A stretch of 64,000 nucleotides of DNA from contig JAQTNW010000009.1 of the NCBI GenBank assembly GCA_028713655.1, positions 8,474-72,473 on the forward strand, in the 5' to 3' direction. Numbering within the stretch: position 1 is the stretch's first letter; each line of letters opens with the position of its first letter. The DNA comes from Candidatus Methylacidiphilales bacterium (GTDB lineage: Bacteria; Verrucomicrobiota; Verrucomicrobiia; Methylacidiphilales; JAAUTS01). The position numbers were made by a program, and so were the translations under genes. Under the pieces are notes generated by a model. That model was not told the origin of the DNA. It searched no databases and worked only from the letters and a program-made list of their open reading frames with translations. This document shows, piece after piece, positions 1,827-57,712 of this stretch.

Positions 1827-1940
1827 GCCAACCATCCAACCAGAAAACAGGCTTGTACGCAAGTGCTAGAGTGTTTTCATCCAAGAAAGTTTTAACGCAG
1901 CACCCCAGAGGCAAAAACCGCAAAAATTGGAACCGGGATT

Positions 1941-1975
1941 GAACCACGGATGGACACAGATAACCACTGATGGAA
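1941..1975 (-). repeat. R5 10-bp-phased triple repeat (ATCyGyG x3 + GGTTC), minus orientation
   Basis: GAACCACGGATGGACACAGATAACCACTGATGGAA. Forms an imperfect inverted pair with 2023-2059. Confidence 0.75.
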
Positions 1976-2022
1976 GTCAACGCAGGTTAAAGCAAACAAC
2001 ACACGATTTGTTCCGGGCTATT

Positions 2023-2059
2023 TCCCATCTGCGTTCATCCGCGTTTATCCGCGGTTCAA
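2023..2059 (+). repeat. R5 10-bp-phased triple repeat
   Basis: TCCCATCTGCG TTCATCCGCG TTTATCCGCG GTTCAA. Three 10-bp units followed by GGTTCAA. Confidence 0.75.
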
Positions 2060-2069
2060 TTTTTTCAAT

Positions 2070-3305
2070 CTAGGAAAACAAGTCCCGTCGGGATTCGCGG
2101 CGGCGGAGCTGCAGGGCGTGCTCATAGCGCGCGCGCAAACGCCCGTCGAACCATACCTGGCCGAAAATTTCGCCTAAAACCATCGCCACCCCCAGCACCG
2201 GCATCGCCAGCAGCAATCCCGTGGCCCCTCCGATCACCCCGCCCGCAAAAATCATCAACACCGTCAGCAAGGGATGCGCACTGAGGGAACGTCCGACGGT
2301 CAGGGGCGTATAGAGAAAGTCGTCCAACATCCGCACCACCAGGAACAGGCAAATCGACCCGACAAACAACAGCCGGTTGGCCGGCACGCCGATCGCGCCG
2401 GAAAAATAAAACAGTTGGTCCGGGGCCTGGGCCACGCTGATCAGCGCGACCAAAATGCATCCCAGCACGGAACCGGCAAAGGGGACCCAGGCAAACATTG
2501 CGCACAACAACCCGAGAAAAACAGCCTGCCGAAAGCCAAACAAACCGAAGGGCAATCCAAGCAGCCAAAGCCCCAGAGCCAGCGTAACGGTATCCAGAAC
2601 CGTCAGGGCAATCAGTCCGCGGAAGTACCGTTTCATCTGGCGGTCCACCCGGTCAAACAGGAGCAACACCTTCTCAAAAAACGCGTTCGGCACGCCGCGC
2701 ATAACAAGTCGCTTGCATGTACCCGCGTCTTTCAGGATGAAAAAAGTCAGGTACGGGACCAGGAGAAGCGACGGGATCCACGAAATGAAATATTTCACCA
2801 CGCCGGACAGGTTTTCCTTGATGAAGTTTTCCTTAAGGTCCATCAGCTTCTGGCTGATTGTTTCAGCCACATGGGCGTCCGCCAGCCAGGCATGCCTGCC
2901 TTCCAGGTCCCGCAGGAAACTGTTGATCATTTCCTCGAGACGGGTCAGGCAACCCGGCAACTGGTCCTGCAAAAGATAAATCTGCGTTGTCAGCCAGGGC
3001 AAAACCAGCGGAATCAGAAACAATACCGCCAGCGAAACCATTGCCAAAAAAACATACAGCGCCTTGTCGTGGCTCAATCCCCGGCGCATCAGCATTTCGA
3101 GAAACGGCTGGCTGAGATAATAAAAAACCACGGCCAAAACAAGCGGCAGCGAAACCCACCAGACCAGATCCAGCAAAAAGAGGATGGCCAGCGTCCCTCC
3201 GATCACGCACAGCCAGACAGCCGGATGCTCCAACCCTGTGACGGACGTTTTCAAGTGTAGCTGCCGGGGAACAACGGCGTGCTGCTTTCCCTCAGGCGCG
3301 CGCAA
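2070..3305 (-). CDS. AI-2E family transporter (PerM/UPF0118)
   Basis: 411-aa polytopic membrane ORF. The C-terminal half (LIALTVLDTVTLALGLWLLGLPFGLFGF...WVPFAGSVLG) is typical of the family. An alternative TTG start at 3254 would overlap the upstream stop as TTGA. Confidence 0.85.
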   Translation of the reverse strand: MRAPEGKQHAVVPRQLHLKTSVTGLEHPAVWLCVIGGTLAILFLLDLVWWVSLPLVLAVVFYYLSQPFLEMLMRRGLSHDKALYVFLAMVSLAVLFLIPLVLPWLTTQIYLLQDQLPGCLTRLEEMINSFLRDLEGRHAWLADAHVAETISQKLMDLKENFIKENLSGVVKYFISWIPSLLLVPYLTFFILKDAGTCKRLVMRGVPNAFFEKVLLLFDRVDRQMKRYFRGLIALTVLDTVTLALGLWLLGLPFGLFGFRQAVFLGLLCAMFAWVPFAGSVLGCILVALISVAQAPDQLFYFSGAIGVPANRLLFVGSICLFLVVRMLDDFLYTPLTVGRSLSAHPLLTVLMIFAGGVIGGATGLLLAMPVLGVAMVLGEIFGQVWFDGRLRARYEHALQLRRRESRRDLFS

Positions 3306-9182: not shown

Positions 9183-10157
9183 ATGTCCTCCATGCAAAGC
9201 GTCCGCCGCGGCGGACGCACTCCAAAATTTTGGGATGAATACGAAATCAGCAACGGAGAAAGCAGCTTGAAAATCACATTCTGGGGAACCCGCGGCAGCA
9301 TTCCCACGCCCAGCACCAGTTCGTTCGTCACCAGCCAATACGGCGGGGACACCACCTGCATTTCCGTGGATTGCGCGGGCCATCGCGTGATTCTGGACGC
9401 CGGGTCCGGCCTCCGGCTTTTGGGCCTGGAAATGGCCAAGGAAACCGCTCCCATCCAGGCCACCTTCTTTTTCAGCCATGTACATTGGGACCATATCCAG
9501 GGGTTCCCATTTTTCATCCCCGGTTTTCAAAAAGGAAACCGCTTTGACTTGTACGGCCCGCACCTGGGCATATCACCGGATTTCGTCGGCAGCATTCTCG
9601 AAAAGGCGTTGCGCGGCCAGCAGAATGACCTGAACTTCCCGGTCCAGCTCAATGACATGCCCGCCGAGATGATCTTTCGCGACCTGCCGGAGCGCGCAAA
9701 AGTGGAAATCCAGGGCCCGCTCGGACTGGTCAAGGTTTTCTCCGCCCCGCTCAATCATCCCGGAGGCTGTTTCGGCTACCGCATCGAGGAACACCGTCCG
9801 GGCCAGGCGGTAAAAGTCCTCGCCTTCGCCACCGACACGGAACATCTGGACGCCGTGAATCCTAACATGCAATTTCTGGCCAAAAATGCGGATGTCCTGA
9901 TATACGATTGCCAGTACTCACCGGAAGAATACGCCGACGCCAACGGATATAGCCGAAAAGGCTGGGGACATTCCACGTATGAATGGGGCCTGCGAGAAGC
10001 CAAGGCCGCGGGCGTCAAACGGCTTGTCATGCACCATCACGACCCGTTGCACGACGACAGCAAGGTGGCAGACATGGAAAAACGGGCTCGCGTCATGGGC
10101 AAGGATCTGGGCATCGAAGTCCAGGCGGCAGCCCAAGGCATGGTGCTCGAGCTATAA
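9183..10157 (+). CDS. MBL-fold metallo-hydrolase
   Basis: KITFWGTRGSIPTP...GGDTTCISV...ILDAGSG...FFSHVHWDHIQGFPFF (HxHxDH). The start is uncertain. The ORF opens at GTG 9114 inside a repeat. ATG 9183 is reported, but TTG 9267 is preceded by GGAGAAAG and is also plausible. Confidence 0.8.
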   Translation: MSSMQSVRRGGRTPKFWDEYEISNGESSLKITFWGTRGSIPTPSTSSFVTSQYGGDTTCISVDCAGHRVILDAGSGLRLLGLEMAKETAPIQATFFFSHVHWDHIQGFPFFIPGFQKGNRFDLYGPHLGISPDFVGSILEKALRGQQNDLNFPVQLNDMPAEMIFRDLPERAKVEIQGPLGLVKVFSAPLNHPGGCFGYRIEEHRPGQAVKVLAFATDTEHLDAVNPNMQFLAKNADVLIYDCQYSPEEYADANGYSRKGWGHSTYEWGLREAKAAGVKRLVMHHHDPLHDDSKVADMEKRARVMGKDLGIEVQAAAQGMVLEL

Positions 10158-11772: not shown

Positions 11773-12050
11773 ACCCCGGTTCAAGCTTGAACCTGCGAAC
11801 CGCCTTTCCGCGGATTCGCTGCTGGGTTTTTAATTAAATCCCGTTATTCGTCCGAAAGGGCGGATGGCGGGATTTTCTTGCATCGTTTTACAGCCAGCCC
11901 GGTGCTTTTCTCGCATGGAGCCACAAGCACGGAGGGCGAACAAATTTTTAACCGCGAAAAGAAGGATTCGAAGCAGATGCTCTATTTATTTCTTGTCCGT
12001 GATTTTCGTGTGTTTCGTGGTTTACTAAAAGTATTCTGTCGTTCCCCTCA

Positions 12051-12086
12051 TTTATCTGTGTCCATCCGTGTTTATCCGTGGTTCAG
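12051..12086 (+). repeat. R5 10-bp-phased triple repeat
   Basis: TTTATCTGTG TCCATCCGTG TTTATCCGTG GTTCAG. A degenerate TTTCGTG variant lies just upstream (11995-12030). Confidence 0.8.
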
Positions 12087-12160
12087 GCTTCTTGTCCCCT
12101 TTCGTGTCTTTTCAGGGGTAACCGGGTTGACTTTGGTCCCTGATGTTTCATATTTATCCC

Positions 12161-12487
12161 ATGAAAAGGAATTGCCTCATACTTGGGATTCTCCTGATGG
12201 CCGCCGGAGCGCAAGCGTCCGATTTCAACGCGCCCTCCAAGAAAATCCCCATGCTGAAGCAGGTACCCGAAGCCAGGCACGAGGAAGTTTTGAAGCCCAG
12301 GGCTTCTGGCGTCATTATCATGATGTCGGAACACGGGCTGCAGGTTTTCAGCCCGCTGGCTCCGATGAACTTGGGCATTGGGGAGAAAATTCTGACCCGG
12401 AGCGCCTCACTGGATCCCCGCCCTGCGAACCCGCTGGATGACACCAAGCCGTTTGGCGGCATGAGCCTTATCGGGTTTGAATTTTAA
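12161..12487 (+). CDS. Small secreted hypothetical protein
   Basis: MKRNCLILGILLMAAGAQA signal peptide. No recognisable domain. The ORF track starts at 12143. Confidence 0.45.
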   Translation: MKRNCLILGILLMAAGAQASDFNAPSKKIPMLKQVPEARHEEVLKPRASGVIIMMSEHGLQVFSPLAPMNLGIGEKILTRSASLDPRPANPLDDTKPFGGMSLIGFEF

Positions 12488-25428: not shown

Positions 25429-25463
25429 AGTTTAAAGTTTGAAGTTTCAAGTTTTAAGCTTGG
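25429..25463 (-). repeat. R8 heptamer tandem array
   Basis: AGTTTAA AGTTTGA AGTTTCA AGTTTTA AGCTTGG. 7-bp period; reverse complement of the CTTAAAA/CTGAAAC type. Confidence 0.7.
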
Positions 25464-25613
25464 CGCGCAATCCCTCCATCCTCTTCGGGAGCGCGGGCAT
25501 CCTGCCCGCACCGTTGCGCATCTGGAACACTCGCGATTTATCGGAGTTGCGCAACGGATGCCTTTCAATCCGTTCCCCTCAGGGTGTGTTCCGAGCTTTG
25601 ACTTCTGCATTCT

Positions 25614-25642
25614 GAATTCTAAATTCTAAATTCTAAATTCTA
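25614..25642 (+). repeat. R8 heptamer tandem array
   Basis: GAATTCT AAATTCT AAATTCT AAATTCT. Confidence 0.8.
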
Positions 25643-27488: not shown

Positions 27489-27974
27489 ATGAACATTCCA
27501 AAACTCTGCATTTCATCTGTGGAAAGTGCGTCCAACAAAACCCCCTTTTCTTCCCCCTTGTCAGGGGGATGTCTGCTGCTTTCCTTATTTGCGTTCATCC
27601 GCGTTCATCCGCGGTTAAAATGCTTCTTTTCGTGCCTTGGCGTCTTCGTGGTTGTTTTCGCCTTCACATTTTCAACACCCGCCCCGGTCCACGCCCAAAG
27701 CCAGCCTGAAATGAACGCCGAAGCCGCTGCGCGGTTCGAAAAATACGACAAGGAACTGAACCGCGTTTATCAGGGCATCCTCAAAGGCCTCGACGCCGAG
27801 GGGCAAAAGAAATTGAAAGCAGCCGAGGAAGCCTGGATCAAATACCGCGACGCCGAGGCGGCCTTCCAGGCCGACAGCGAACGCGGAGGCTCGCTGTCGA
27901 ACTACATCTATCTCGACACCCAAGCCACCCTGACCAAGGCGCGAATTGACGCTTTGAAAAAAGGCGGCGGATAG
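27489..27974 (+). CDS. DUF1311/LprI-family lysozyme-inhibitor-like protein
   Basis: YDKELNRVYQGILKGLDAEGQKKLKAAEEAWIKYRDAEAAFQAD...YLDTQATLTKARIDALK. The N-terminal ~45 codons are R7/R5 repeat sequence, so the true start is probably later, before the signal-like FSCLGVFVVVFAFTFSTPAPVHA. Confidence 0.65.
   Translation: MNIPKLCISSVESASNKTPFSSPLSGGCLLLSLFAFIRVHPRLKCFFSCLGVFVVVFAFTFSTPAPVHAQSQPEMNAEAAARFEKYDKELNRVYQGILKGLDAEGQKKLKAAEEAWIKYRDAEAAFQADSERGGSLSNYIYLDTQATLTKARIDALKKGGG
27551..27571. repeat. R7 hairpin (CCCCCT-N4-AGGGGG)
   Basis: TTCCCCCTTGTCAGGGGGATG. Confidence 0.7.
27586..27620 (+). repeat. R5 10-bp-phased triple repeat
   Basis: TTATTTGCG TTCATCCGCG TTCATCCGCG GTTAAAA. Confidence 0.75.
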
Positions 27975-28138
27975 AAATCATTCACCGCAGTTGCGGAGAA
28001 CTCTGAGGCAAGATAGTTCTTCGTTCGTAGTTCTTTGTGATTTGCTGTCTTGGCAGTTCAACTCTTTTACTCCGTGACTCGGTGGCTCCGTGAGAGAAAT
28101 AGGCTCTACTTGGCGGTCTTTGCGCGAAATATGATTTA

Positions 28139-28222
28139 TGTGGGCGCGACAGGAATCGAACCTGCATGGATTGCTCCAAAGGAACCTAAATCCTTCGCGT
28201 CTGCCAATTTCGCCACGCGCCC
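28139..28222 (-). tRNA. tRNA-Leu (anticodon TAG)
   Basis: Hand-folded minus-strand sequence: GGGCGCG TG GCGA AATTGGCAGA CGCG AAGGA TTTAGGT TCCTT, a long variable arm (TGGAGCAATCCAT), GCAGG TTCGATT CCTGT, CGCGCCC A CCA. Collinear with E. coli tRNA-Leu. CCA is encoded. Confidence 0.85.
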
Positions 28223-28263: not shown

Positions 28264-28321
28264 GGCAGCCCTGTTCATGGGCAGTCAGTTCACCGCAGGC
28301 GCAGGACGCGGAGAAGCAGTT

Positions 28322-28356
28322 TTATCCGCAGATGAACGCAGATGGGTACAGATTTT
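28322..28356 (-). repeat. R5 10-bp-phased triple repeat
   Basis: TTATCCGCAG ATGAACGCAG ATGGGTACAG ATTTT. Confidence 0.75.
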
Positions 28357-28503
28357 GAAAATCAAAACAAGGAGTTGGCCACAAAAAACACAAAAATGAG
28401 TGGGGAGTTTTTACAAAAAGATCGCAGAGTTTTTGGAGTTTTTTGGATCTCTCCTAAAACTCCAGGTTCACTGTGCTCTCTTTGTAAAAAATGCTTTGCC
28501 TCT

Positions 28504-28540
28504 GATAATCTGTGTAAATCTTCTTAATCTGCGGATAAAA
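28504..28540 (+). repeat. R5 10-bp-phased repeat, variant
   Basis: GATAATCTGTG TAAATCTTCT TAATCTGCGG ATAAAA. Inverted relative to 28322-28356. Confidence 0.6.
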
Positions 28541-28586
28541 TGCTTTCCTTTGCGGCTTGGCGTCTTTGCGCGAGGACCTGTGCTGG

Positions 28587-29480: not shown

Positions 29481-29708
29481 GATGTTTTAAAGTTATCAAG
29501 TAATGCCAATTTAATATTTCACATTTATCATAAAAATCGAGTAGATTTCCTGTGGCTTGAGACGGGATTACATGCCAGGAATGGATCGCCACGTCCGGCG
29601 GTTGCCGGACTCGCGATGACGAACCACGCGGGAGCGTCATTGCGACGAGAACGGCGAAGCCGGACGACGCGGCAATCCACGTATGAACGTATAATTTGAG
29701 ACTGACTT

Positions 29709-31115
29709 ATGGGTAAAACTTTATTTGAAAAAGTCTGGGATGCGCACGCCGTCCGGCAACTCGCCAACGGCCAGACCCAGCTCCTCATCGGCACCCACCT
29801 GATCCACGAGGTCACCAGCCCGCAGGCTTTTGCCATGCTGCGCGACCTCGGCCTCAAGGTGAAGTTCCCCCGCCGCACCTTCGCCACCGTGGACCACATC
29901 GTGCCCACCGACAAGTTCGAGGAGCCCTATGCCGACCCGCTGGCCGACGCCATGATCAAGGAACTGCGCAAAAATTGCGCCCAGTTCGGCGTGACCTTTT
30001 TCGACCGCAGCACCGGACGACAGGGCATCGTCCACATCATCGGGCCTGAACTGGGCATCACACAACCCGGCACCACCATCGCCTGCGGCGACTCGCATAC
30101 ATCCACCCACGGGGCCTTCGGCGCCATCGCCTTCGGCATCGGCACCACCCAGGTGCGCGACGTGCTGGCAACGCAAACCATGGCCATCGGCAAATTGAAG
30201 GTGCGCCGCATCAATGTGGACGGACACTTGCGCCCCGGCGTCTATGCCAAGGACGTGATCCTGCACATCATCCGCAAACTGGGAGTCAACGGCGGCACCG
30301 GCTTCGCCTACGAATACGGCGGCGAGGTCTTCGACCGCTTTTCCATGGAAGAGCGCATGACCGTCTGCAACATGTCCATCGAGGGCGGCGCGCGTGTGGG
30401 CTACGTCAACCCGGATCAAAAGACTTTCGACTTCCTCAACGGTCGCCCTTATTCCCCAAAGGGCGCCGACTGGAACAAGGCCGTCGAACGCTGGAAATCT
30501 TTCGCATCCGACCGCGACGCCACCTACGACGATGTCGTCCGCTTCAAGGCCGAAGACATCGAGCCCACGGTCACCTGGGGCATCAACCCCGGACAGGCCG
30601 TCTTTGTCAGTGAAAACATCCCCACGCTGGCGGAAGTGCCGGAGAGCGACAAAGCCATCACCCAGGAAGCGCTGGAGCACATGAAGTTCGAGCCCGGCTC
30701 CCCCATCAAGGGCAAAAAAATCGACGTTGCCTTTCTCGGCAGTTGCACCAACGGACGGCTGAGCGATTTCCAGGAAGCCGCAAAGTTTCTGCAAGGCCAT
30801 AAAGTCGCCCCCGGCGTCAAAGCCATCGCAGTCCCCGGTTCGCAGGTGGTCGCGATCCTGTGCCACGACCTGGGCATCGACAAAATTTTTCAGGAAGCCG
30901 GGTTCGAATGGCGCGACGCGGGTTGTTCCATGTGCCTGGCCATGAATCCTGACAAATTGGTCGGCGACCAGCTCTGCGCCAGCTCCAGCAACCGCAACTT
31001 CAAGGGCCGGCAAGGCAGCGTCACCGGACGCACCCTGCTGATGAGCCCCGTCATGGTCGTGGCCGCCGCCGTCACCGGAAAGGTCGCCGACCCGCGCGAG
31101 GTCTTCCATTCCTAA
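29709..31115 (+). CDS. leuC: 3-isopropylmalate dehydratase large subunit
   Basis: [13 protein letters not shown]...[12 protein letters not shown]...[13 protein letters not shown]...GSCTNGR...CSMCLAMN. Confidence 0.95.
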
Positions 31116-31162
31116 TTCCTAATTCCTAATTCATACTTCTTACCTTCTACCTCTTACTTACT
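31107..31162 (+). repeat. R8 heptamer tandem array filling the leuC-leuD spacer
   Basis: CATTCC TAATTCC TAATTCC TAATTCA TACTTCT TACCTTC TACCTCT TACTTAC. 7-bp period from the leuC stop to the leuD ATG. Confidence 0.7.
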
Positions 31163-31810: not shown

Positions 31811-31845
31811 GAACCACAGACGGACGCGGATCAACACGGATAAAA
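31811..31845 (-). repeat. R5 10-bp-phased triple repeat
   Basis: GAACCACAGA CGGACGCGGA TCAACACGGA TAAAA. Confidence 0.7.
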
Positions 31846-31924
31846 GCGCCAACTCTCACTCCATCTCTTAATCTTACTCCTAATCTTAATCTTTTCCGCC
31901 TTCGCCAAAGCTCTCAATAAAAGA

Positions 31925-32378: not shown

Positions 32379-32429
32379 GAAAACAAACACTTTTTACAGG
32401 GAGAACACAACTAACAAAACTCCCTTGTC

Positions 32430-32456
32430 TTCCCCCTTATCAGGGGGATAAATGCC
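32430..32456. repeat. R7 hairpin
   Basis: TTCCCCCTTATCAGGGGGATAAATGCC. Confidence 0.75.
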
Positions 32457-32498
32457 TCTTGTGCCTACGCCTGGGAATGGTTTTACATTGGAACCGCT

Positions 32499-32535
32499 TT
32501 CCCATCTGTATATATCCGTACTATCCGTGGTTGAA
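32499..32535 (+). repeat. R5 10-bp-phased triple repeat
   Basis: TTCCCATCTGTA TATATCCGTA CTATCCGTGG TTGAA. Confidence 0.7.
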
Positions 32536-32762
32536 TTTCTGTCTCCTGTTCAATTTTCGCGTCTCTTGCGTTTTTTTACGGCCAATCCTCTGTTCGTGAT
32601 TTTCGTGTATTCTTGACCGCCATAGCTTTATGCGGCTGCGGTTCGTGGTAAAAATCTGCCATTTCCCGATTCGACATTTCTCCAGCGTTTTGATTGGAGA
32701 TTGCTGAAAAGCCAAAATAAAACCAGACTTGCCCCCGCGTATATAGCGTTTATCATGTTTTT

Positions 32763-36790: not shown

Positions 36791-36924
36791 TTGGCCGCAA
36801 AAGAACGCAAAAATCACAAAGAACCAGGAACGTTAAACTAAAAACAATTTTATTCTGTGTTCTGTGGCCAGAACTTCGTGTCATGGTGACTTCGTGGTTC
36901 ACACTCGATCCGGCAAAGCTATCG

Positions 36925-42335: not shown

Positions 42336-42379
42336 GAACCGCGGATAAACACGGATTCACACGGATTCACACGGATAAG
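42336..42379 (-). repeat. R5 10-bp-phased repeat, four units
   Basis: GAACCGCGGATAAA CACGGATTCA CACGGATTCA CACGGATAAG. Confidence 0.8.
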
Positions 42380-42525: not shown

Positions 42526-42773
42526 TAACCCGGATGTTTCACACGCTTCTGAAAACCTCAGCAAAGTGTCCTGCTCCAAAGTGTGGCAGGAACTGGGGTG
42601 CAGGAACTGGGGTGCAGGAACTGGGGTGCAGGAACTGGGGTGCAGGAACTGGGGTGCAGGAACTGGGGTGCAGGAACATCCGGGTTACAAGCAAAACCGC
42701 CTGAATGGGTATTTTGTTTTGATTTTTGAATTGGAACTGCCTTATTTGGAGGCGGTTTTGCAATAGCCTGCAT
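42526..42773 (+). repeat. R1 element, expanded copy with second hairpin
   Basis: TAACCCGGATGTT (42526) pairs with AACATCCGGGTTA (42675). The loop carries the 14-bp tandem array. Then AAAACCGCC (42693)...GGCGGTTTT (42751) GCAATAGCCTGCAT. Confidence 0.8.
42587..42677 (+). repeat. Perfect 14-bp tandem repeat, 6 full copies plus a 7-nt partial
   Basis: (CAGGAACTGGGGTG)x6 + CAGGAAC, counted directly in the sequence. Confidence 0.95.
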
Positions 42774-44448: not shown

Positions 44449-44814
44449 TCAGGCCTCCGCGCCCAATCCCAATTTCCGTTTCCGCTCGTTCAAACGGCGC
44501 GCCACATGCTTTTTCTGTTCAACGCGGCGGGTTTTGCGTTTGCGCAACTGGCCTGCGAGTTTGTCGGCGGCCACATCAATCGCGGCATACAAATCACTGC
44601 GGTGTTCCTCGATATGGATGTCCGGGCCGGGAACCGCAAGGTGGGCCTTCACGCAAAAGGATTTGTCGGGATTCTTGTTTTCATCGTACATCAGCACCAC
44701 ATGGGCGCCGATGATTTCGTCGGTCAAATGTTCCAGGTGGCTGACCTTCTGGGCCACATATTCATGGATCGCTCCGGTCAATCTCAGATGTCTTGAACTG
44801 ATGTGAATTTGCAT
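44449..44814 (-). CDS. hpf: Ribosome hibernation promoting factor (short HPF/RaiA type)
   Basis: MQIHISSRHLRLTGAIHEYVAQKVSHLEHL...DLYAAIDVAADKLAGQLRKRK. Confidence 0.9.
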   Translation of the reverse strand: MQIHISSRHLRLTGAIHEYVAQKVSHLEHLTDEIIGAHVVLMYDENKNPDKSFCVKAHLAVPGPDIHIEEHRSDLYAAIDVAADKLAGQLRKRKTRRVEQKKHVARRLNERKRKLGLGAEA

Positions 44815-44887: not shown

Positions 44888-44922
44888 TTATCCGCAGATG
44901 GACGCAGATTTCCACAGATGAG
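44888..44922 (-). repeat. R5 10-bp-phased triple repeat
   Basis: TTATCCGCAG ATGGACGCAG ATTTCCACAG ATGAG. Confidence 0.75.
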
Positions 44923-44936
44923 AAAATTGGGGCTTT

Positions 44937-44964
44937 CTTAAAACTTTAAACTTAAGACTTAAAA
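44937..44964 (+). repeat. R8 heptamer tandem array
   Basis: CTTAAAA CTTTAAA CTTAAGA CTTAAAA. Confidence 0.75.
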
Positions 44965-44971
44965 CATGAAG

Positions 44972-45006
44972 AGAACCACGGATGGACACGGATGTACGCG
45001 GATTAA
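44972..45006 (-). repeat. R5 10-bp-phased triple repeat
   Basis: GAACCACGGA TGGACACGGA TGTACGCGGA TTAAA. Confidence 0.75.
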
Positions 45007-45020
45007 AACTAGGCTGGCAC

Positions 45021-45048
45021 CATCCCCCTGAGAAGGGGGATAAATGCG
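45021..45048. repeat. R7 hairpin
   Basis: ATCCCCCTGAGAAGGGGGATAAATGCGG. Confidence 0.75.
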
Positions 45049-48954: not shown

Positions 48955-48993
48955 TTTTATCTGCGTTTATCTGCGTCCATCTGCGGTTCAAAA
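48955..48993 (+). repeat. R5 10-bp-phased triple repeat
   Basis: TTTTATCTGCG TTTATCTGCG TCCATCTGCG GTTCAAAA. Confidence 0.8.
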
Positions 48994-49036
48994 CGTTTTT
49001 TCTTCCGTCTTTTGCGGCCAACAAAACCCCCTCGCC

Positions 49037-49061
49037 TTCCCCCTTGTCGGGGGGATAACAC
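49037..49061. repeat. R7 hairpin
   Basis: TTCCCCCTTGTCGGGGGGATAACAC. Confidence 0.7.
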
Positions 49062-51045: not shown

Positions 51046-51070
51046 TTTAAATCACGAAAGAAGGCGGAAA

Positions 51071-51105
51071 CTTGAAACTGAAAACTTAAGACTTAAGACT
51101 TAAAA
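51071..51105 (+). repeat. R8 heptamer tandem array
   Basis: CTTGAAA CTGAAAA CTTAAGA CTTAAGA CTTAAAA. Confidence 0.8.
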
Positions 51106-51112
51106 CTCTTCC

Positions 51113-57650: not shown

Positions 57651-57660
57651 TGCGTTTTTC

Positions 57661-57688
57661 TTAATTCTTAATTCTGACTTCTGAATTC
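57661..57688 (+). repeat. R8 heptamer tandem array
   Basis: TTAATTC TTAATTC TGACTTC TGAATTC. Confidence 0.75.
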
Positions 57689-57712
57689 TCCAGGATTTCC
57701 CGTCATAGAGAG

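Follow-up and report, generated by a model that had tools for sequence, protein, structure and literature searches.

A cassette family found across phyla links common intergenic repeats with the abundant, functionally uncharacterized GxxExxY nuclease family

INTRODUCTION

REPIN-RAYT systems consist of repetitive extragenic palindromic (REP) sequences, arranged as doublets that form hairpins, and of a domesticated transposase gene flanked by them (PMC3116915). This is the closest architecture to that of the repeats considered here, which lie in a 64,000-nucleotide stretch of a Candidatus Methylacidiphilales genome (contig JAQTNW010000009.1, positions 8,474 to 72,473; hereafter, the window). In these repeats the heptamer ATCYGYG recurs, typically three times, at a period of 10 bp, and the array often ends in GGTTC. 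We present evidence that such arrays are probably the arms of a family of cassettes that carry a gene for a small GxxExxY protein, a predicted nuclease, and that the window holds only gene-less miniature or solo derivatives, or relics, of these cassettes.

Like REPs, the arms are short intergenic repeats found mainly as inverted doublets with a short spacer (62 head-to-head neighbours, compared to 6 tail-to-tail and 8 direct), and their singlets resemble decayed doublets. In both systems a protein gene is bracketed by inverted repeats, repeat and protein lineage change together, and copy number is high. The defining features of REPIN-RAYT, however, fail here. REPs are imperfect palindromes of 20–40 bp with a GTAG/CGTC head, whereas the arms are triple direct repeats with no internal dyad symmetry and no such head. 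RAYT is a Y1 (HUH) transposase, whereas the partner of the arms is a 120-aa PF13366 PDDEXK_3 protein, and no Y1 transposase was seen next to the arrays. Further differences are the start codon inside the arm and an arm sequence common across phyla, in contrast to the lineage-specific REPs.

Other known elements share parts of this anatomy. Bacterial miniature inverted-repeat transposable elements (MITEs) include the Correia, ERIC and Nezha elements. They resemble the arm pairs in size (70–130 bp), terminal inverted repeats, intergenic location, high copy number and hairpin formation when transcribed, and gene-less arms seem to have arisen, as MITEs do, through internal deletion of a longer element that bears a gene (locus L079). 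Unlike MITEs, the arms show no target-site duplication and consist of phased heptamers, and their parent element encodes only a PD-(D/E)XK protein and no DDE transposase. Integron attC cassettes are likewise compact and promoterless, with an imperfect palindrome right after the stop codon of which only the ends are conserved. Here, in contrast, the gene lies within the palindrome, the ends are (T)GGAACC…GGTTCC(A) rather than RYYYAAC/GTTRRRY, there is no integrase, and the window has no same-orientation cassette arrays. Phased direct-repeat operators are exemplified by PhoB/OmpR boxes and by MraZ boxes (7 + 3 bp). The arms match them in having three heptamers as direct repeats at 10-bp spacing, but have no fixed promoter position or regulon, are paired in inverted orientation, reside on a cassette and are absent from relatives.

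Free-standing homing endonuclease genes include PD-(D/E)XK types such as I-Ssp6803I. As with the cassettes, a small nuclease gene sits between host genes in the same orientation and without target-site duplication; unlike the cassettes, homing genes are not known to have conserved inverted arms or to give rise to thousands of gene-less hairpin derivatives. The likeness extends to horizontal spread, which has been noted for PF13366 (PMC3424549). Finally, 23S rRNA intervening sequences can bear an open reading frame (ORF), as in Leptospira and Coxiella, where it encodes S23p (PMC4990558). Both they and the cassettes place a small, functionally uncharacterized ORF, sense-oriented in the host transcript, inside a long stem-loop formed by inverted repeats, and both have a selfish, patchy and horizontally transferred character. 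In contrast to these intervening sequences, which occupy helix 25 or 45 of 23S rRNA and are removed by RNase III, the cassettes examined lie between protein genes (the window has no rRNA gene), the ORF encodes a PD-(D/E)XK protein rather than the four-helix-bundle S23p, and selection for RNA pairing was not seen.

RESULTS

Phased triple-repeat arrays in the window

The arrays were first reported in an annotation made from the letters of the window alone (the first-pass annotation). The flagged site, 12051-12086, reads TTTATCTGTG TCCATCCGTG TTTATCCGTG GTTCAG. The observation is confirmed. A search for ATCYGYG(N3)ATCYGYG(N3)ATCYGYG with at most two mismatches gave 11 matches, corresponding to 10 arrays, and none in 100 dinucleotide-preserving shuffles of the window. 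The same 10 arrays were recovered with an arm profile for which only copies outside this genome had been used (E = 1e-5 to 3e-11). Two more of the copies noted earlier, 28504-28540 and 32499-32535, are real but degenerate, with the profile picking up weak pieces of both, for a total of 12 arrays (10 clean and 2 degenerate). Successive cores lie 10 bp apart in 17 of the 19 window cases and in 392 of ∼455 at 120 other loci, and exactly three units are present in 9/12 and 213/315 arrays, respectively. Within the heptamer, the A, T, C, G and G positions are invariant, and the Y positions vary by transition only.

Some details had been drawn too sharply. The terminal GGTTC is found in 7–8 of the 12 window copies, the four others ending in GGTTAA, GGATAAAA or GGTTGAA. 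Copies do occur in both orientations, and 11 of 12 are intergenic (P = 2.9e-8, given that intergenic DNA makes up 16.7% of the window), but the one at 27587-27620 falls inside the 5′ part of a mechanically called LprI ORF. For this comparison, genes were called with a self-trained codon-usage gene caller and checked against Pfam. Degenerate TTCGTG-type variants were found as described, at ∼11995-12030, 32590-32625 and 36850-36900, with periods of 7–9 bp. When Rfam was searched at gathering and looser E-value thresholds, only a tRNA-Leu passed gathering, and nothing overlapped the arrays up to E = 5.

Arms pair mostly head-to-head and are randomly oriented to genes

Each array was oriented 5′-ATCYGYG…GGTTC-3′ and compared with its neighbouring genes, in the window and the 120 other loci (228 arrays). 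Gene starts are faced by the array 3′ end 84 times and by the 5′ end 86 times; for gene stops, the numbers are 121 and 116. Position relative to genes, a check that the first-pass annotation had called for, is thus random in orientation. The next gene is nearer to the GGTTC end (median 52–57 nt) than to the opposite end (123–161 nt), because arms pair head-to-head. Among adjacent arrays, 62 are in this arrangement (GGTTC outward), 6 are tail-to-tail and 8 direct, with gaps mainly of 2–100 nt. This pairing means that the unit is an imperfect palindrome, (T)GGAACC-(CRCRGAT NNN)x3 - loop - (NNN ATCYGYG)x3 - GGTTCC(A). Solo arms account for nearly half of all arms, and many of them retain the consensus. 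The intergenic regions that host arms are co-directional in 90 cases, convergent in 30 and divergent in 19, a mild depletion from divergent regions. The window contains two head-to-head pairs (1938-2060 and 28322-28540), one direct pair (44888-45005) and a stub followed by an arm (32490-32535), the rest being solo. The genes next to its arrays are functionally unrelated.

The GxxExxY gene lies between paired arms

All-against-all BLAST comparison of the proteins encoded at the 120 loci gave no large recurrent neighbour cluster. One cluster, from three loci, comprised proteins of 120–140 aa, and this cluster was the decisive clue to the link between arms and gene. Its members lie exactly between head-to-head arms 360–415 nt apart and belong to PF13366 PDDEXK_3 (E = 1e-34 to 1e-42) and to TIGR04256, ‘GxxExxY protein’. 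All five GxxExxY ORFs in the 120 array-selected loci are armed at both ends, with the ATG within the left arm.

To remove the bias of array selection, we used two protein-first tests (leader and context) and a spacing-first test. An arm-encoded leader, [NDH][TA]D, was seen in 75 of the best 120 homologues (68 begin M[NDH][TA]D), compared to 8/120 in a control family, the homologues of a 189-aa ORF at locus L100. The codons ATG AAC ACA GAT are the arm sequence itself, such that a left arm containing …CAGATGAACACAGAT… reads MNTD…. When homologues were chosen by protein alone, 4/4 had both arms (L129, L130, L164 and L165); the called N-termini of two of these lack the leader, and the arms are nonetheless present. 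In the spacing-first test, metagenome contigs with two exact arms 355–385 nt apart, selected with no protein information, yielded 116 elements. A GxxExxY ORF is enclosed by 103 of these (89%); in the other 13, arms are combined into nested or tandem composites.

The arrays had originally been viewed as binding sites for an oligomeric protein, a view that was to fall if they proved to be fragments of a longer element. The phasing, the three units and the transition-only Y positions do suit recognition of each arm. The arrays are not stand-alone host sites, however, but the inverted arms of a GxxExxY cassette.

The L100 ORF (5292-5917) is a separate case. It matches no Pfam family, lies between the same arms and begins MDTDKHG inside an arm. 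We considered it as a second regular cargo and rejected this, as its family is an ordinary one; given the scarcity of arm leaders among its 120 homologues, it is probably one lineage-specific capture.

Cassette anatomy and gene-less derivatives

Cassette statistics come from the 103 spacing-first cassettes. The full cassette is TGGAACC-(CRCRGAT+3 nt)x3 - 120-aa GxxExxY gene - (3 nt+ATCYGYG)x3-GGTTCCA, with the outer consensus AAAATGG|AACC … GGTT|CCAAAT. The first in-frame ATG lies within the left arm in 64/103 cassettes, a GGA is positioned 7 nt upstream of the first arm ATG, at Shine-Dalgarno distance, and the stop codon precedes the right arm by a median of 5 nt. Cassettes reside inside operons in sense orientation. 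Those of L130 and L164 occupy orthologous sites in a CO/xanthine-dehydrogenase-like operon, where they separate the large subunit from the small one, that of L165 lies between two ABC-permease genes, and that of L282 between fabD and fabG. In the predicted fold of the L130 transcript, a 33-bp stem surrounds the whole gene (z = –6.2).

The arms of gene-less pairs are more decayed than those of cassettes (complementarity 85.7% versus 92.8%). Internal deletion is seen in L079, where the arm gap is 212 nt and profile positions 54–119 are left, and in L048 a complete cassette and an empty hairpin share a stretch of 8 kb. The two window pairs are predicted to fold stably as RNA, with –45.2 kcal/mol (z = –4.3; DNA fold, z = –2.7) for region 1930-2068 and –73.9 kcal/mol (z = –6.6) for region 28315-28548 (–). 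Partner-specific (base-pair) covariation between arms was found neither in cassettes nor in gene-less pairs: identity at Y positions for corresponding versus non-corresponding units is 0.888 versus 0.859 in the former and 0.739 versus 0.741 in the latter. Nor is there a bias among transition mismatches toward sense-strand G.U over A.C (82 versus 73 in cassettes, 34 versus 35 in gene-less pairs).

In L130, the upstream MoCoBD subunit gene is called into the left arm (9990-10012) and stops at the TGA of the arm ATGA. The insertion may have replaced the C-terminus and stop codon of the host gene, and the overlapping stop and start would permit translational coupling.

Distribution across genomes and relatives

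A GTDB scan identified the exact 31-nt pattern at ≥120 loci in >100 genomes, where chance would give an estimated ∼0.07 occurrences in the 596-Gb collection. The matches listed span at least 12 phyla, isolates and archaea included, a spread much wider than the association with the Planctomycetes-Verrucomicrobia-Chlamydiae (PVC) group that the first-pass annotation had mentioned. By rough count, these listed matches comprise 27 Planctomycetota, ∼30 Verrucomicrobiota and other PVC members, 13 Acidobacteriota, 10 Cyanobacteria, 16 Proteobacteria, 6 Bacteroidota, single members of ∼10 further phyla and 3 archaeal bins (two Methanoperedens, one Methanobacteriota). Isolates with the pattern are Scytonema sp. 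HK-05, Cylindrospermum NIES-4074, Nostoc sp. 106C, Fontivita pretiosa B-254 and Asticcacaulis biprosthecium C19. Only 32 IMG/VR contigs contain it.

Conservation in the lineage, another check proposed at the outset, gave the opposite picture. In the closest available relatives (L121–L128, ∼120 kb, LeuC 85–89% identical), there are zero arrays, even when two units with one mismatch are allowed, and the syntenic intergenic regions are unrelated in sequence to those of the window. Queries for near-identical strains or a longer contig around the window returned no record, or just Logan contigs of 1–4 kb. Copies within one genome have loops and flanks in common (L055, L063/L076, L025, L031), whereas between genomes the arms alone are common. 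Taken with the absence from relatives and the cross-phylum distribution, this pattern indicates a dispersed element family with horizontal spread rather than a conserved host cis-element. The elements are best read as having spread in this Methylacidiphilales lineage after its split from the sequenced relatives.

Two loci show other layouts. One IMG/VR contig (L137, 9.6 kb) has eleven arms with a TTA spacer (AACCACGGATTAACACGGATTAACACGGAT), all on one strand regardless of gene direction and several directly at gene starts, a layout unlike the head-to-head pairs elsewhere. In L169 (148-1266), tandem units of ∼225 bp each contain ATC-type and ATTCGTG-type arms, making a higher-order repeat of arms.

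Sister arm families

GxxExxY genes of distant lineages have different arms. That of Bacteroides finegoldii is flanked by CTCTGTG x3 at a 9-bp period, ending in GGTGAA, with an upstream mirror arm TTCACC…CRCRGAG; that of Sphingomonas by CTTCGCG units ending in GCGTGAA; and a Treponema gene has a single ATCCGTG unit per arm. Thus, the heptamer changes with the protein lineage. The periods of the sister families are 8–9 bp, which makes the 10-bp period, and with it the claim of one helical turn, particular to the ATC family. In the window, TTCGTG, CTTGGCG and CTTTGCG arrays stand beside several ATC arms, and the relative L121 has a CTCYGYG…GGTGAGA pair. These other YGYG arrays, the one at 28069-28093 included, and the L121 pair are probably arms of sister GxxExxY families; the 28069-28093 array is of the CTCYGYG type, as are the arms of the B. 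finegoldii gene.

In Prevotella nigrescens (L284, 1-30 and 520-550) and on a Fusobacteria plasmid (L280, 70-120 and 525-575), direct repeats of 30–50 nt flank the GxxExxY gene, and the downstream repeat in L280 extends into a ribosome-binding site. These repeats hint at a different insertion or duplication history in those lineages.

The GxxExxY protein

By family (PF13366/TIGR04256), the ∼120-aa GxxExxY protein is predicted to be a minimal PD-(D/E)XK nuclease. An alignment of 47 homologues shows E27, D66, E76 and K78 to be invariant, corresponding to the canonical E…D…ExK motif. The AlphaFold model (predicted local distance difference test score, 93.6) has the PD-(D/E)XK fold, with Cas4 SSO0001 (template modelling score, 0.62), lambda exonuclease and MGME1 as its best structural matches; no close solved structure was found by sequence search. 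In a census of the PD-(D/E)XK superfamily, the function of PDDEXK_3 is given as ‘Unknown’, and PF13366 is reported to occur in both prokaryotes and viruses and to have been transferred multiple times from one division or domain to another (PMC3424549). The family is very abundant (one query returned >7,500 clusters). It is rare on plasmids, with the gene in 8 of 72,556 records, and it was not found in GenBank phage records. Searches of defence and phage libraries gave weak similarity to the Cas4 core at most and no PHROG match.

Arms and neighbouring features of the window

Coordinates are collected in Table 1. Several of the features call for comment. Arm 2025-2060 lies 9 nt from the stop codon of an AI-2E transporter gene (2070-3305, –), and a distance of 57 nt separates the flagged arm, located between divergent genes, from the downstream ORF 12143-12487 (+).

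The LprI-domain ORF (27489-27740) runs without a break through its ATC arm and the TTCGTG/CTTGGCG arrays that follow. Its translation, …FAFIRVHPRLKCFFSCLGVFVVVFAFTFSTPAPVHA|QSQ, resembles a signal peptide, although it is not certain which start codon is used. The leader may here be encoded by recruited repeat DNA.

Arms from at least three families crowd the intergenic DNA around the tRNA-Leu (tag anticodon, 28140-28222), whereas the region of the same tRNA-Leu in the relative L121 is compact and free of such arms.

Table 1. Arms, arm-like arrays and other repeats of the window
Feature	Position	Strand	Remarks
Arm ATCAGTG, ATCTGTG, ATCCGTG + GTTCAAT	1938-1972	-	Left half of head-to-head pair; profile E = 2.8e-8
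Loop, ∼52–55 nt	1973-2024	.	Between both arms of pair 1938-2060
Arm ATCTGCG, ATCCGCG, ATCCGCG + GTTCAAT	2025-2060	+	Right half of pair; profile E = 7.3e-11
Possible decayed partner AACCGCGAAAAGAAGGATTCGAAGCAGATG of arm 12052	11950-11979	+	By eye, tentative; not recovered by profile
Sister-family array TCCGTG / TTTCGTG / TTTCGTG + GTTTA	11994-12024	+	9-bp period
Flagged arm ATCTGTG, ATCCGTG, ATCCGTG + GTTCA	12052-12085	+	Profile E = 2.7e-10
Arm ATTTGCG, ATCCGCG, ATCCGCG + GTTAAAA	27587-27620	+	Followed by TTCGTG/CTTGGCG arrays; in 5′ part of LprI ORF
CTCYGYG sister array ACTCCGTG ACTCGGTG GCTCCGTG + AGAGAAA	28069-28093	+	Reverse partner at ∼27985-28010
Arm ATCTGTA, ATCTGCG, ATCTGCG + GATAAAA	28322-28353	-	∼100 nt upstream of tRNA-Leu (28140-28222, -)
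Degenerate partner arm AATCTGTGTAAATCTTCTTAATCTGCGGATAAAA	28507-28540	+	Head-to-head with 28322-28353
Solo arm	31811-31843	-	45 nt past leuD stop, antisense to flanking genes; profile E = 4.2e-6
Degenerate arm ATCTGTA.. ATCCGTA.. ATCCGTGGTTGAA, preceded by opposite-arm stub GGAACCGC	32490-32535	+	Profile pieces
Four-unit arm ATCCGTG x3, ATCCGCG + GTTC	42336-42379	-	Pattern and profile
Arm ATCTGTG, ATCTGCG, ATCTGCG + GATAAAA	44888-44922	-	73 nt upstream of HPF/RaiA gene 44449-44814 (-)
Arm in direct orientation with 44888-44922	44972-45005	-	Profile E = 1.8e-10
Solo arm	48957-48992	+	Between two minus-strand genes, antisense to both; profile E = 2.7e-11
Second dispersed repeat	27533-27570, 32413-32449, ∼45024-45043 (-), ∼49019-49056		15–60 nt from ATC arms, four places
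6–7-bp tandem repeats	25429-25462, 25609-25642, 31108-31132, 31866-31893, 44937-44965, 51068-51107, 57658-57689		

Other repeats are interspersed with the arms. A second dispersed repeat, CAACAAAACCCCC..(T)TCCCCCTT(G/A)TCAGGGGGAT, contains a CCCCCT/AGGGGG hairpin, and its proximity to ATC arms suggests composite mosaics resembling bacterial interspersed mosaic elements (BIMEs). Intergenic tandem repeats of 6–7 bp in 4–6 copies (AGTTTGA, ATTCTAA, ATTCCTA, TCTTAA, CTTAAAA, AAACTTA and TTCTGAA) recall the heptamer short tandemly repeated repetitive (STRR) sequences of heterocystous cyanobacteria. Beside the four-unit arm, a perfect 14-bp tandem repeat, GCAGGAACTGGGGT x 6.6 (42586-42677), lies within a region of ∼870 bp that has no convincing gene.

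Upstream of leuC, a block of ∼100 nt (∼29580-29680) is conserved in L121 (∼9730-9830), where the remaining intergenic DNA is unrelated. The block reads GGATCGCCACGTCC…GGACTCGCGATGAC…GAGAACGGC[GA]AAGCCGGACGACGCGGCA[AG]TCCA and has no Rfam match. A leader of the leucine operon is one possibility, some other cis-regulatory RNA a second.

DISCUSSION

Given the association of arms and gene, the anatomy of the cassettes, their spread across phyla, their absence from relatives of the window and the greater decay of gene-less copies, we consider it probable that the arrays are arms of a GxxExxY-nuclease cassette family, of which the window retains only gene-less miniature or solo derivatives, or relics. 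In the mechanism that we propose, the cassette nuclease, as an oligomer, would recognize each arm in duplex DNA by its three phased heptamers and would cut at or near the GGTTC/GAACC boundary, thereby copying or moving the element without target-site duplication. Gene-less copies would be non-autonomous derivatives, arisen by internal deletion in the manner of MITEs or REPINs, or relics, and would rely on a nuclease gene elsewhere in the genome. The long hairpins that paired arms form when transcribed would be a by-product. Within this overall statement, DNA-level mobility driven by the nuclease is the tentative part, which we regard as possible and somewhat short of even.

Several points weigh against this interpretation. 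The triple-unit 31-nt arm and head-to-head pairing are both found in the window, and the GxxExxY gene between arms is found in other genomes; a six-frame search of the window itself revealed no GxxExxY gene or fragment (best E = 1.4), so that a copy of the nuclease acting in trans has to be assumed. Flank repeats of 3–6 nt were not above permuted controls in 102 cassettes, giving no sign of target-site duplication; mobility itself is an inference. The retention of both arms at the same operon position in L130 and L164 looks like vertical inheritance, with the arms constrained in place, which pure mobility does not predict. Inverted arms are replaced by direct repeats at the GxxExxY genes of Fusobacteria and Prevotella, obvious arms are missing altogether from some distant members, and the 8–9-bp periods of the sister families weaken the argument that the units share one face of the helix. 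Finally, the GGA and start codon of the left arm, together with the complementary right arm, suit a role at the RNA level equally well.

Such a role is the alternative that needs the closest consideration, although we think it unlikely, with something like a one-in-five standing. The left arm would provide the GGA ribosome-binding site and start codon, and the right arm would pair with it, silencing translation and/or forming a long stem. RNase III would cut this stem, as it cuts that of ORF-carrying intervening sequences in 23S rRNA; gene-less pairs would act as processing sites, stabilizers or terminators, and solo arms would be inert. Much of the cassette anatomy fits, from the frequent start within the left arm, with its GGA 7 nt before the ATG, to the stop 5 nt before the right arm, the sense orientation within operons and the shared site of L130 and L164. 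The predicted stems are stable, both around the L130 gene and at the window pairs. The Coxiella intervening sequence, an ORF in a stem cut by RNase III, is comparable (PMC4990558). If RNA pairing were under selection, however, wobble should be preferred and paired positions should covary, and neither is the case. A stem, moreover, requires no heptamer fixed across phyla, no 10-nt period and no exact number of three units, and nearly half of the arms are solo, some of them in divergent intergenic regions. The fixed heptamer, unit number and period and the transition-only Y positions fit sequence-specific recognition of duplex DNA better than the alternatives tested. From this, the lack of covariation and of G.U bias, the consensus solo arms and the tracking of protein clade by arm family, we infer that DNA recognition by the cassette nuclease is to be favoured over RNA stem formation.

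The remaining explanations leave the cassette out. A host operator, at which a global regulator or nucleoid protein would bind as a dimer or oligomer to three sites on one helical face, was the first proposal and has in its favour the strict 10-bp phasing, the three units, the intergenic location and a format resembling PhoB/OmpR or MraZ boxes. It now seems very unlikely, since the 31-nt pattern recurs in at least 12 phyla and in archaea and yet is missing from the syntenic intergenic regions of relatives. Orientation to genes is random, with stops neighboured as often as starts, the adjoining genes are functionally unrelated, with no recurrent neighbour family except GxxExxY between arm pairs, and the arrays physically belong to a gene cassette. 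RNA polymerase pausing would account for a cross-phylum pattern by convergence: native elongating transcript sequencing (NET-seq) papers of 2014 reportedly define the bacterial elemental pause consensus as G(–10) Y(–1) G(+1), which YGYG every 10 nt would mimic as a stack of sites. The motif and the 10-nt spacing suit this idea, but random orientation to transcription does not, the invariant ATC and the terminal GGTTC are left unexplained, sister families have 8–9-nt periods, and the arrays are tied to one gene family and occur in archaeal bins too; we rate it as highly improbable. Least credible is replication slippage yielding tandem repeats with neither function nor element history. Other short tandem repeats do abound in the intergenic DNA of the window, but slippage is already contradicted by the unit number fixed at three, by imperfect units with the same invariant positions everywhere, and by the defined terminal motif, head-to-head pairing and identical sequence across phyla.

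A number of candidates were dropped on inspection by eye: DnaA boxes (TTATCC is followed by GTG, not ACA), CsrA sites (the GGA vanishes when Y = T), the tRNA T-arm (GGTTC has no closing stem), uptake sequences, and IS6-type insertion-sequence ends (wrong polarity). The idea that three units serve to place a stop and a start in every frame was also rejected. At least two frames are closed in 63% of reverse versus 7% of forward arms, but this is no more than the position-wise composition of the spacers predicts, and the idea fails for the 9-bp family.

The first-pass annotation knew of no described function for the repeats, and this still stands. No account of the cassette family turned up in the literature that could be searched, in which few subscription-journal papers are covered, though database curators may know the context. 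Queries with the arm sequence and its peptides returned primers and noise only; those with GxxExxY, PF13366 and TIGR04256 returned incidental mentions beyond PMC3424549.

What the cassettes offer, first of all, is a concrete and testable role for TIGR04256/PF13366, an abundant family listed as ‘Unknown’ (PMC3424549). They also explain a class of intergenic repeats along with the spurious ORFs to which these give rise (…ICVHLRSSAV…, …EPQMNTDEHR…), which pollute annotation in Verrucomicrobiota, Planctomycetota, Acidobacteriota, Cyanobacteria and others. For annotators, arms are marks of insertion scars, they form hairpins within operons, and coding regions can absorb them. Should the nuclease indeed mobilize the arms, the mechanism of mobility would be a new one, and the family might serve as a source of small nucleases with sequence specificity.

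It is possible, although we would put it forward with some doubt, that GxxExxY cassettes constitute selfish elements of an unrecognized class, present in both bacteria and archaea. Their 120-aa nuclease would then recognize triple-heptamer arms around its own gene, and the element would cross phyla and copy itself with no target-site duplication, needing no enzyme of the DDE, HUH, serine or tyrosine type, and would shed gene-less hairpins and solo arms. The ATC arms and their sister families (CTCYGYG, CTTCGYG, TTCGTG and others) would make up much of the intergenic ‘YGYG’ repeat content, and such leftovers would explain many spurious hypothetical proteins of large environmental genomes. Whatever the mode of spread, these cassettes connect a very common kind of intergenic repeat, across phyla, with the abundant GxxExxY nuclease family.

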